A stretch of DNA of 11,747 bases from positions 1 through 11,747 of the IMG/VR virus record IMGVR_UViG_2698536355_000019; one strand, given 5' to 3'. The stretch comes from a virus. Its lineage: Duplodnaviria > Heunggongvirae > Uroviricota > Caudoviricetes. Of this stretch, positions 1-3,000 are shown in pieces. The position numbers are program-made. The stretch's first letter is position 1, and each line of letters starts with the position of its first letter.

Positions 1-3000
1 AAGAAATAGGGCTTCCACCTGGGAAGCCCTTTCTTTTTATAGTTCGGCTGTATGTAGGGTACAGCACGATGAATCTGTTAGAGGCGCAATAGTGACAGAT
101 TTGATTATCAATTCCTATTTTGTTCTAAGGATAAAACCTTAGGTTGTGATCATCCGCACAATCCCTTAGTAACGCCAGCGGTCATAACGCTGATATTTCG
201 GCACTTTTGGTGCTTTAATCGCCTTAATAACCCACACCACCGCAATCGCCAGTAGTAACCACGGCAGCAACTTAATCATCAATGCCAGCATACCGCCGAG
301 GAACATAATGGCCGTCGCCACAACCAGCGCGGCGATAATGCCCAGCAACGAAACGCCGGTGACCATCAGCATGACAAAAAAGCCAATCACAAAAAGTAGT
401 TCCAGCATGATGCTCTCCCAAATATGAAATCTCTTGCTGGCATTACAAGAATCATGCCAAAAATAATCTATTGATTTAACAGCAAAACGCCCCGCGACGG
501 TGCGCAGGGCGTGGTGAATTTGACTACTTTTTGGTGAAAAGTTAACGCTTATCCGCCACCAGTTTGAGCGCGTGTTCCAGCACATTAATGTCTGCACCCG
601 CTTTATGGGCATTTTCACTTAAATAACGCCGCCACTGCCGCGCGCCAGGAATACCCTGGAACAAGCCCAACATATGCCGGGTAATATGGCCGAGATACGT
701 CCCCTGGCTGAGTTCACGCTCAATGTACGGATACATGGCGCGCACTACCGCCACCGGATCGGCATCGGTATCCGAGGAACCAAAGATCTCCCGGTCTACC
801 GCCGCCAGAATACCCGGATTCTGATACGCCTCGCGCCCGACCATCACGCCATCCATATGTTGCAGGTGTGCTTTGGCCTCTTCCAGCGACTTGATACCAC
901 CGTTAATCGACATTGTCAGATGCGGAAAGTCACGCTTCAGTTGATACACACGCGGATAATCGAGCGGCGGGATTTCACGGTTTTCTTTCGGGCTTAACCC
1001 CGAAAGCCAGGCTTTACGTGCGTGGATGATGAACATCTCACACTCGCCTTTGCCGGAAACGGTATTGATGAAATCGCAGAGAAATTCATAGCTGTCCTGG
1101 TCGTCGATGCCAATACGCGTTTTCACCGTCACCGGAATCGACACCACATCGCGCATCGCTTTCACGCAGTCGGCAACCAGCTGCGCATTACCCATCAGAC
1201 ACGCACCAAACATGCCGTTCTGCACCCGGTCAGACGGGCAGCCGACATTCAGGTTGATCTCATCATATCCGCGCGCTTCTGCCAGCTTTGCACACTGCGC
1301 CAGCGCCGCCGGATCGCTACCGCCCAGTTGCAACGCTACCGGATGTTCTTCTTCACTGTACGCCAGATAATCACCTTTACCGTGAATAATCGCCCCTGTG
1401 GTCACCATTTCGGTATACAGCAACGTATTGCGGGAAAGCAGACGCAAGAAATAGCGGCAATGTCTGTCCGTCCAGTCGAGCATGGGAGCAATGCTAAACC
1501 GAGAATTCCAGTAAACACCAGTTTTTTCAGGCATCACGCTGGTTTGATTAATTTTTAGTGTTTCATGATTATCGTGCATTTTTGAACATTTCAGGCTATT
1601 TTTCTCGCGTTAGGTTCCCGCACAGGTTCCCACGTTTTATGGGAACCCGAAATAACGAGGTCGTGTAATGGCGTACTATAACATAGAGAAACGACTAAAA
1701 TCCGATGGCACACCACGCTATCGCTGTAATGTGATTATCAAAGAAAAAGGTGTTATCACTTACAGGGAAAGCAAAACATTCCCTAAACATGCTCATGCCA
1801 AAACATGGGGCACACAGAAAGTGATGGAATTAGATCTATATGGCATTCCATCATCAAATGCAGTTGACGGACTTACAGTCCGTGACTTACTACACAAATA
1901 TTTAAATGACCCAAATGCCGGAGGTAAAGCAGGCCGTACTAAAAGATATGTGCTGGAACTGCTTATGGATAGTGACATCTCCGCGATCAAACTATCTGAA
2001 CTGACAGAAAATGACGTAATTGAACATTGCAGGCTAAGAAACAACGCTGGTGCAGGTCCAGCTACAGTTAGCCACGATGTTAGTTATCTTGGCAGTGTTC
2101 TGGATGCTGCCAAACCTGTATATGGAATTAATTACACATCAAACCCAGCGAAAAGCGCTCGCCCATATCTACTTAAACTTGGTTTGATTGGTAAATCAAA
2201 CCGTCGTAATCGTAGACCAGCATCTGATGAACTGGACATGCTCATTGAAGGCCTTCAACAACGATCTACTCATAAATGCTCAAAAATTCCGTTCGTTGAT
2301 ATCCTCAAATTTTCTGTGTGCTCCTGTATGCGGATCGGAGAAGTATGCCGGTTACGATGGGAAGATCTCGACCAGGAACAAAAATCTATACTCGTAAGAG
2401 ACAGGAAAGATCCACGCAAAAAGGAAGGCAACCACATGAAAGTAGCCTTGCTTGGGGAAGCCTGGGATATCGTCCAACGACAGCCCAAAAAATCGGAATT
2501 CATTTTTCCATATAACAGCACTTCTGTTACTGCAGGATTTCAGAGGGTAAGAAGCAAATTAGGTATTAAAGATCTGCGATACCATGATTTGCGTAGAGAA
2601 GGGGCAAGTCGCTTATTTGAGGCTGGTTTTAGTATTGAGGAAGTCGCTCAGGTTACAGGGCATCGTTCATTAAACGTGCTATGGCAGGTATATACCGAAC
2701 TGTATCCGAAATCTTTACATAATCGTTTTGAAGAGCTCCAAAGGAGCAGAAATAAGACCTCTTGACACTGTTTATCCATACAGTTAAAAATAATACTGTA
2801 TACAAACACAGTATAGAGGGACTTTTATGCGTATTGAGATCTGCATAGCCAAAGAAAAAATGACTAAAATGCCAAACGGTGCTGTGGATGCGTTAAAGGA
2901 AGAATTAACCCGACGCATCAGTAAGCGTTATGACGATGTAGAGGTGATCGTAAAAGCCACCAGCAACGATGGCCTTTCTGTTACGCGCACCGCCGATAAA

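Follow-up and report, generated by a model that had tools for sequence, protein, structure and literature searches.

Integrases that direct mobile elements into the 5' end of dusA were defined as a family, the dusA-associated integrases (DAIs), by Farrugia et al. 2015 (PMC4482086), who described a semi-conserved 21-bp attachment (att) site and the replacement of the 5' end of the gene by the element. The family explicitly takes in prophages and Escherichia, and the same study also notes members that do not target dusA. The subject of this report is a junction between dusA and a divergent tyrosine integrase gene (int) in a stretch of 11,747 nucleotides, positions 1 to 11,747 of the virus record IMGVR_UViG_2698536355_000019, which is referred to at its full length as the window. 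The window almost certainly holds attL and the adjoining end of a lambda-like, effector-carrying prophage in dusA, with an integration module of the type found in phages mEp460, Lys8385Vzw and 1720a-02.

Two lambdoid phages with this insertion site have been described in some detail. Balasubramanian et al. 2019 (PMC6328086) found that the Stx phage 1720a-02 integrates 100 bp into dusA, described a core of seven bases together with the motif TCCAGTCGAGCATGGGAGC and a phi-dusA' fusion, and sequenced attP circles. Zhang et al. 2021 (PMC7946995) induced the Stx1a siphophage Lys8385Vzw, a carrier of NleG7 whose prophage lies in dusA, from an O103:H11 strain. For a distant member of the family, IMEVchUSA3, Durand et al. 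2021 (PMC8409611) demonstrated a new dusA promoter and found that the directionality factor (RDF) is a PrtN homologue encoded across attP.

Comparison with described elements

The integration module of the window is very similar to those of these phages. Lys8385Vzw (MT225100; strain RM8385) matches window positions 1476-3100 at 99.9% DNA identity and shares the gene order int-dinI-nleG7-tail fibre, and the dusA'-int junction of the RM8385 chromosome is 100% identical to that of the window. In contrast, Lys8385Vzw covers 72% of window positions 1400-11747, being without the IS3-family insertion sequence (IS) element and the extra NleG and tail-fibre modules past about 6490; the window, which ends short of the corresponding region, shows no stx gene. 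The module of 1720a-02 (Phi-stx2dact, KF030445) is 95.8% identical in DNA sequence and agrees with that of the window in its core, TCCAGTCGAGCATGGGAGC motif, phi-dusA' fusion and non-canonical orientation, which puts int beside attL, but it belongs to a phage with Stx2d cargo and with other tail-fibre and cargo genes behind dinI. The free lambdoid phage mEp460 (JQ182728) has the five repeat copies on both arms that are described below and a PrtN-like gene across attP; it differs in having no type III secretion system (T3SS) effector cargo, its side tail-fibre gene following directly after dinI. With the DAI family at large the window shares a tyrosine integrase that is divergent from and abuts the dusA 5' end, a semi-conserved site and a new 5' end for the gene, whereas the members studied by experiment (islands of Acinetobacter and Pseudomonas, and a Vibrio integrative mobilizable element) are distant in sequence and are not lambdoid phages.

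A preliminary description of this stretch, made from the sequence, had correctly placed effector-type genes and tail-fibre modules behind the integrase and had called this content unusual. The genes found there are a DinI-like gene, NleG7 and an EspS/Ibe/OspB-like gene, followed by tail-fibre modules, an IS3-family element and more NleG. The judgement that they are unusual does not hold, since the family includes prophages (PMC4482086) and the near-identical Lys8385Vzw carries NleG7 in dusA (PMC7946995). The nleG7-ibe-tail-fibre module is also present in many Stx phages that are integrated elsewhere. A dusA attL of an effector-carrying lambdoid prophage is already described, common and ordinary, and the locus mainly confirms what is textbook-level genomics of Shiga toxin-producing and enteropathogenic Escherichia coli, namely that dusA is a recognised site for lambdoid, Stx-type, effector-carrying prophages and that the phage repairs the gene.

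The attachment site and the rebuilt dusA gene

The junction is composed of the following features.

542-1579, minus strand: dusA, an open reading frame (ORF) of 345 amino acids (Pfam Dus, 7.8e-105)
542-1475, minus strand: host-derived part of dusA, from codon 36 to the stop codon, by DNA and protein identity to K-12
1476-1483, no strand assigned: att core and crossover region TCGAGCAT, dusA nucleotides 97-104 (codons M33-L34-D35), from the four-way att alignment
1484-1579, minus strand: phage-supplied replacement 5' end of dusA (phi-dusA', codons 1-32), from matches to free phages and about 80% identity to K-12
1577-1602, plus strand: three phased T-tract repeats (CATTTT at 1577, CATTTC at 1587, TATTTT at 1597), read from the sequence
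1612-1619, plus strand: putative Int arm-type site P-a, AGGTTCCC, from the repeat and comparative data
1624-1631, plus strand: putative Int arm-type site P-b, AGGTTCCC, 12 bp past P-a, from the same data
1641-1648, minus strand: inverted, imperfect third copy GGGAACCC (reverse complement GGGTTCCC), a 7/8 match
1668-2765, plus strand: dusA-specific tyrosine integrase of 365 amino acids (Pfam PF00589 Phage_integrase, 9e-21)

The two genes are divergent and the gap between them, 1580-1667, is exactly 88 bp, as the preliminary description had stated. It had also stated that K-12 has chromosomal sequence in place of the integrase, and indeed yjbM lies 362 bp upstream of dusA in K-12 MG1655, with no integrase at that position. 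Its further proposal, that the integrase belongs to a dusA-targeting element which supplies a replacement 5' end, is borne out by the alignments that follow.

When the window is aligned with the island-free dusA region of K-12, three zones can be distinguished. There is no similarity upstream of the dusA start, dusA nucleotides 1-96 are about 80% identical, and from the core ATGCTCGA onward the identity is 100% (the stretch compared being window 1380-1475). At the protein level, the hybrid DusA of 345 amino acids differs from that of K-12 at 10 positions, all of them within residues 1-29, and residues 30-345 are identical.

The origin of the divergent segment is established by a four-way alignment, in which attP of the free phage mEp460 and attB of K-12 recombine to give attL (the window) and attR (the far end of a syntenic prophage). 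The sole block that is common to all four sites is ATGCTCGA / TCGAGCAT, 8 bp at window 1476-1483. This core lies inside TCCAGTCGAGCATGGGAGC (1471-1489), which is verbatim the attB motif published for 1720a-02 (PMC6328086). The matches of free phages to the window (mEp460, Lys8385Vzw, SKA5, 1720a-02 and others) begin at 1474-1479, and the phi-dusA' sequence is found in the four named phages. The attL arm at 1580-1667 is identical to attP of mEp460, with a few mismatches in the dusA' segment. Given this four-way relationship, with the core at 1476-1483, the segment 1484-1579 is phage DNA that rebuilds dusA in frame. The host/phage boundary inside dusA, the core and the exact coordinates of attL are thereby available for annotation.

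The core TCGAGCAT is single copy in the window, and a search for a second att copy within the 11,747 nucleotides found none. Such a copy is found in a syntenic genome, NZ_CP144928.1, where a complete lambdoid prophage of 48.6 kb separates dusA from yjbM. Its far end holds a displaced 105-bp remnant of the dusA 5' end (positions 24071-24175 of the extracted locus, L003), annotated as 'tRNA-dihydrouridine synthase, missing C-terminus', and the pattern there is the reverse of that in the window: identical to K-12 up to ATGCTCGA and unrelated beyond. The modules of this prophage cover the tail (J and tape-measure protein), head, terminase, lysis, Q and replication, and its repressor is of the XRE family (CI type); of the lambdoid modules the window itself holds only side tail-fibre genes, together with cargo. 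From position 1 to about 6900 the window is 99% identical to many E. coli chromosomes in which dusA is followed by the integrase and then by a complete lambdoid prophage, and the dusA'-int junction is carried by 741 of 5,426 complete E. coli genomes.

The integrase and its relatives

Int of the window is 99.7% identical in protein sequence to Int of Lys8385Vzw and 98.4% identical to that of mEp460. Among 38 homologues, the catalytic residues R222, H306, R310, H332 and Y342 never vary, and R309 is kept in at least 90%. An AlphaFold2 (AF2) model built with the same 38 homologues predicts an N-terminal beta3-alpha domain, a core-binding domain and a catalytic domain, with the elements of the N-terminal domain placed at residues 2-10, 16-26 and 29-38 (beta) and 41-58 (alpha) at a predicted local distance difference test (pLDDT) score of 85-92. 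Structure comparison by Foldseek returned tyrosine recombinases, and the whole length of the model can be aligned with lambda Int (1z1g, 5j0n), at about 17% sequence identity. Sequence profiles were less informative: an NCBIfam scan of Int gave sub-threshold Xer and integron matches and no specific family name, a Pfam search of residues 1-168 up to an E value of 10 gave a weak Int_N match at 72-165, and a PDB sequence search gave distant Xer-type matches.

The integrase alignment was scanned against one genome per species, yielding 80 related loci with 52-99% Int identity, and dusA adjacency at these loci was scored by tblastn with DusA. The gene divergently abuts int in 55 of the 80, the gap ranging over 68-106 bp. 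Where upstream DNA was available, all loci at or above 66% Int identity show this arrangement except L049, a degraded symbiont locus that was excluded. Integrases close to that of the window lie beside the same gene, and the DNA upstream of dusA departs from that of K-12, both in keeping with the dusA-specific element that had been proposed. The exact core TCGAGCAT is present in 22 of the 55 dusA-adjacent loci, so that the att core is semi-conserved and not invariant.

About 19 more distant loci, with Int at most 65% identical, adjoin other genes, in agreement with the members outside dusA that Farrugia et al. noted. The loci recorded as not beside dusA (Int 52-65% identical) are L030, L032, L033, L036-L044, L050, L051, L056, L057, L061, L068, L082 and L086; their neighbours include a DEAD-box helicase gene (L032, L037) and upp (L038). 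These loci retain the layout of two direct repeats upstream of int that is described below, which suggests target switching inside one integrase family.

Across attP from int, near attR of the syntenic prophage, lies a PrtN homologue (L003 22287-22568; Pfam PF11112, 9.7e-23), the counterpart of which in mEp460 is gene 025. Between this gene and attR, NZ_CP144928.1 has a gene with a Panacea domain, SocA antitoxin-like (Pfam 2.2e-19), and a pair of small hypothetical genes (L003 22616-23817), and mEp460 has different genes there, so that the interval looks like a variable accessory slot beside attP. In another E. coli genome (NZ_AP042706.1, L005 13767-18785) the same dusA-adjacent integrase is disrupted by IS66-family and IS3-family insertions, giving a fixed prophage at dusA.

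Repeats beside int

The preliminary description had pointed to two direct copies and one inverted copy of an 8-mer in the 88-bp gap, and had suggested that they might be arm or core-type sites of the integrase or a regulatory operator. The direct copies are exact, AGGTTCCC occurring exactly twice in the whole window, at P-a and P-b; the inverted one, GGGAACCC, matches at seven of its eight positions and is not exact. The copies lie 20-56 bp upstream of the int start. Taken alone the repeat is marginally significant: by a rough estimate of our own, the probability of any exact 8-mer direct repeat in a random 88 bp is about 0.05, and at least two copies of AGGTTCCC arose somewhere in the window in 10 of 200 shuffles. 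Its significance derives from comparative data.

The first comparison is with the other arm of attP. In mEp460, in 1720a-02 and at the syntenic attR, two further copies (RGGTTCCC-AAT-AGGCTCCC) lie on that arm, 44-62 bp from the core and in the same orientation, so that these E. coli phages have five copies in total, three on the int-side arm and two on the far arm. A Vibrio dusA element whose Int is 56% identical has the same geometry with a different motif, AGTACCCCT being present twice upstream of int and GTACTCCT/GTACCCCT on the far arm. In the Klebsiella phage Kp4887-1 (Int 52% identical; target not established), CAGCACCCCA is present twice and GGACCCCA/GAACCCCA are on the far arm. Kp4887-1 had been considered as a further dusA element and was rejected as such, because its left end is without dusA'-like sequence and similar Raoultella loci abut another gene; it serves here solely as a relative that shares the repeat architecture.

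The second comparison takes in 78 related loci, each over the 90 bp upstream of int and against shuffled controls; the loci are phylogenetically non-independent. An exact 7-mer direct repeat with a spacing of 9-14 bp (mode 12) is present in 56 of the 78, as against 1.7% of shuffles. With one mismatch allowed, a direct repeat is found in 75 of the 78, as against 25% of controls, and the modal spacing over these 75 is again 12 bp. The motif itself is lineage-specific (GGYTCCC, GCACCCC, GKACACC, GTACCCC, YGCCCC and others), the lineages of AGGTTCCC and CAGCACCCC being different. An inverted third copy that fits the lineage's own motif occurs in many loci, and in 20 of the 75 by a strict test.

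The third comparison relates the motif to the protein. When Int pairs were binned by equal catalytic-domain identity, the identity of the N-terminal domain (residues 1-60) was higher for pairs of the same motif class than for pairs of different classes in every bin: 0.64 vs 0.48, 0.71 vs 0.52, 0.82 vs 0.63 and 0.94 vs 0.72. For the core-binding domain (residues 70-170) the corresponding values were 0.40 vs 0.38, 0.48 vs 0.46, 0.70 vs 0.65 and 0.85 vs 0.85. The class of the repeat motif tracks the N-terminal domain of Int and not its core-binding domain.

Because the motif is present on both arms, the repeats are lineage-specific, they co-vary with the N-terminal domain and the AF2 model places a beta3-alpha fold there, the AGGTTCCC repeats are best read as arm-type sites of Int, and they probably are such sites. 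The comparative evidence supports this one of the roles that the preliminary description had suggested, and evidence of this kind for lineage-specific arm-type sites in the dusA integrase family is modestly new. Neither Farrugia et al. (PMC4482086) nor Durand et al. (PMC8409611) mentions arm-type sites, and a literature search found none described for the family, although its coverage was incomplete and this is not proof of novelty.

As in lambda, there are repeats to either side of the core. The attP implied by these data measures about 235 bp, with arms of about 165 bp and about 62 bp, and is similar in scale to lambda attP. Differences from lambda are the place of attP, upstream of int, the insertion into a protein-coding gene, which the phage repairs, and a directionality factor that would be of the PrtN type as opposed to lambda Xis.

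Between the core and the pair of putative arm-type sites are the three T-tract repeats, which have a 10-bp period and the first of which overlaps the dusA' start codon. Phased triple repeats of other sequence, such as TGAATT three times, are found at the same place in 24 of the 78 loci, as against 1.9% of shuffles. The T-tracts are candidate sites for a PrtN-type RDF, or a candidate intrinsic bend.

A broader generalisation can be put forward tentatively, and could easily prove too wide. There may be an undescribed attP layout that is common to the dusA integrase family and its relatives with other targets, in which two direct and often one inverted arm-type site lie just upstream of int, two more lie on the far arm, phased repeats lie between, and the sites co-evolve with the N-terminal domain of Int. 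In the prophage the int-side sites would then fall in the divergent int/dusA' control region, so that occupancy by Int could autoregulate int and tune the rebuilt dusA.

A model for integration and excision

The best account of the locus is that a phage Int of the dusA-associated family recombined attP with the chromosomal attB, the crossover falling in the 8-bp TCGAGCAT at dusA nucleotides 97-104. The phage arm beside int brings in a look-alike 32-codon dusA 5' end together with upstream DNA, and insertion thereby restores a full-length, in-frame dusA with an N-terminus of phage origin, the transcription signals of which would be of phage origin too. The original 5' fragment of the gene would be left at attR, about 48.6 kb away if the spacing is that of the syntenic genomes. 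The int gene is transcribed away from attL, toward dinI and the effector/tail-fibre end, an order that is non-canonical compared with lambda. Integration would part int from the early-left operon, and int would therefore have to use a promoter in the 88-bp gap. The rebuilt dusA' would likewise be transcribed from phage DNA; since all of the DNA upstream of dusA is phage, a replacement dusA promoter would come from it.

The N-terminal beta3-alpha domain of Int would read the AGGTTCCC sites and so help to assemble the intasome with the two far-arm copies. Excision would require a PrtN/RdfN-type directionality factor encoded across attP. Int at the arm sites and this factor would assemble an excisive complex, in which the factor may act on the T-tracts at 1577-1602. 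Indirect evidence for a circular excised form comes from the free phage genomes with a matching attP and from the attP circles sequenced for 1720a-02. If the arm sites are real, they would offer a handle on intasome assembly, and on whether Int couples its own expression to a host tRNA-modification gene.

Alternative explanations

Bare adjacency of the two genes would also be seen if the integrase were merely a chromosomal neighbour of dusA and the 5' differences were ordinary allelic variation. This idea is refuted here, because the divergence from K-12 is confined to the first 96 nucleotides of the gene and stops exactly at the core, the same 96 nucleotides are present in free phage genomes, and the original dusA 5' fragment is at the far end of the syntenic prophage. 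It is easier to imagine that the copy in the window is an immobile remnant, with attL and int intact and the rest broken by IS insertion, deletion or rearrangement, so that the junction is a fossil. An IS3-family element cuts a tail-fibre gene (about 6491-7800), duplicated NleG and tail-fibre modules follow where syntenic genomes have lom and J, and in one other genome (H1) the same int has been destroyed by IS66 and IS3 insertions. We nevertheless consider a fossil junction doubtful. The int ORF is full length, and its product is nearly identical to Int of an inducible phage. Over the 88-bp gap the attL arm does not differ from the mEp460 attP. The odd region has Ns and junctions of the kind that draft-assembly joins leave, so that the rearrangements may not be real, and the remainder of the element lies beyond the window.

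A different question is whether the AGGTTCCC repeats could be primarily a transcriptional operator of divergent int/dusA' promoters, bound by a phage repressor, a PrtN/RdfN-type factor or a host protein, and not arm-type sites. Their position within the divergent intergenic region just before int would suit an operator, as would the layout of two direct copies and one inverted, and the Pint of a family member is active on its own promoter (PMC8409611), making local regulation plausible. An int operator needs no copies across the core, however, and three lineages have them there, each with its own motif; the motif class also covaries specifically with the N-terminal domain of Int. An operator role in place of an arm-site role is distinctly unlikely, although the two are not mutually exclusive, since arm-bound Int could autoregulate.

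Several points weigh against the favoured readings of the window as a prophage end and of the repeats as arm-type sites. For the former, a simple sigma-70 scan of 1400-2900 found no consensus promoter for dusA' or int in the 88-bp gap, the dinI promoter being the only one detected; the attR/rdfN end of this copy, which may be incomplete or immobile, is beyond the 11,747 nucleotides; and the region beyond about 6490 has an IS element, Ns and odd joins. For the latter, comparative and model evidence make up the entire basis, and the shared ancestry of the loci means that the repeat statistics overstate the number of independent events. In addition, no Pfam arm-binding family matches Int residues 1-65, and the repeats occupy the place where an int/dusA' operator would also sit.

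The remainder of the window

Behind int, the window contains the following.

2766-2813, plus strand: predicted promoter and two LexA-box-like palindromes upstream of dinI, from the sigma-70 scan and palindrome matches
2827-3075, plus strand: DinI-like gene, prophage cargo (Pfam DinI, 1.2e-19)
3669-4319, plus strand: T3SS effector NleG7, prophage cargo (Pfam T3SS_NleG, 8.8e-48; nleG7 in the annotation of syntenic genomes)
4544-5419, minus strand: EspS / Ibe / OspB-like effector gene, prophage cargo, named from annotations of syntenic genomes and Stx phages
5560-6491, minus strand: lambdoid side tail-fibre genes, from syntenic annotation and ORF translations
5560-5829, minus strand: side tail-fibre C-terminal-domain gene, from ORF translation
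5831 to about 6491, minus strand: collagen-like N-terminal-domain tail-fibre gene, cut at about 6491, from ORF translation
6509-7800, minus strand: IS3-family element, with a truncated end at 6509 that adjoins an N (Pfam rve / HTH_21 / HTH_Tnp_1 and sequence reading)
7904-11747, minus strand: further NleG genes (7904-8551; truncated, 9537-10154) and repeated tail-fibre modules (8693-10295; 10296 to the end), from Pfam and ORFs; these may be assembly artefacts

The part of the window beyond about 6490 has probably been affected by draft-assembly joins among similar prophages. A single N is found at 6510, and a run of eight Ns, NNNNNNNN, at 9712-9719 lies between the inverted 9-mers GCATCCCTG and CAGGGATGC. 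Where the tail-fibre gene meets the IS, 29 nt from inside the IS occur a second time (6480-6508 and 6573-6601), and the IS3-family copy, which we take to be IS629-like from its OrfA sequence, is without terminal bases. A tandem repeat of 1603 bp (8693-10295 and 10296-11747) contains an NleG gene, of which one copy is truncated at the N-run, together with a tail-fibre C-terminal gene and a fragment of a collagen-like tail fibre, and a third tail-fibre module, 94% identical, is at 5493-6490. The tandem repeat may reflect recombination among co-resident lambdoid prophages, or a collapsed assembly. Among the complete E. coli genomes none reproduces the window beyond about 6490 at dusA. Genome H1, which had appeared as the best match to the whole window, was rejected, because unrelated IS copies account for its high coverage and its int gene is broken.

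The DinI-like gene is at the same position in mEp460, Lys8385Vzw and 1720a-02. The palindromes upstream of it (CTGT-N8-ACAG, at 2768-2783 and 2796-2811; two seen where chance would give 0.13) lie right after the int stop codon and overlap the predicted promoter, with its TTGACA at 2762 and its AAAAAT ending at 2791, which suggests that the phage dinI is under SOS control. The EspS/Ibe/OspB-like protein has no match in Pfam or NCBIfam. In syntenic genomes the positions that correspond to 3072-3158 and 5493-5559 are annotated as short remnants of pseudogenes, for a capsid protein and a tail assembly protein, and these are scars of earlier recombination in the cargo region.

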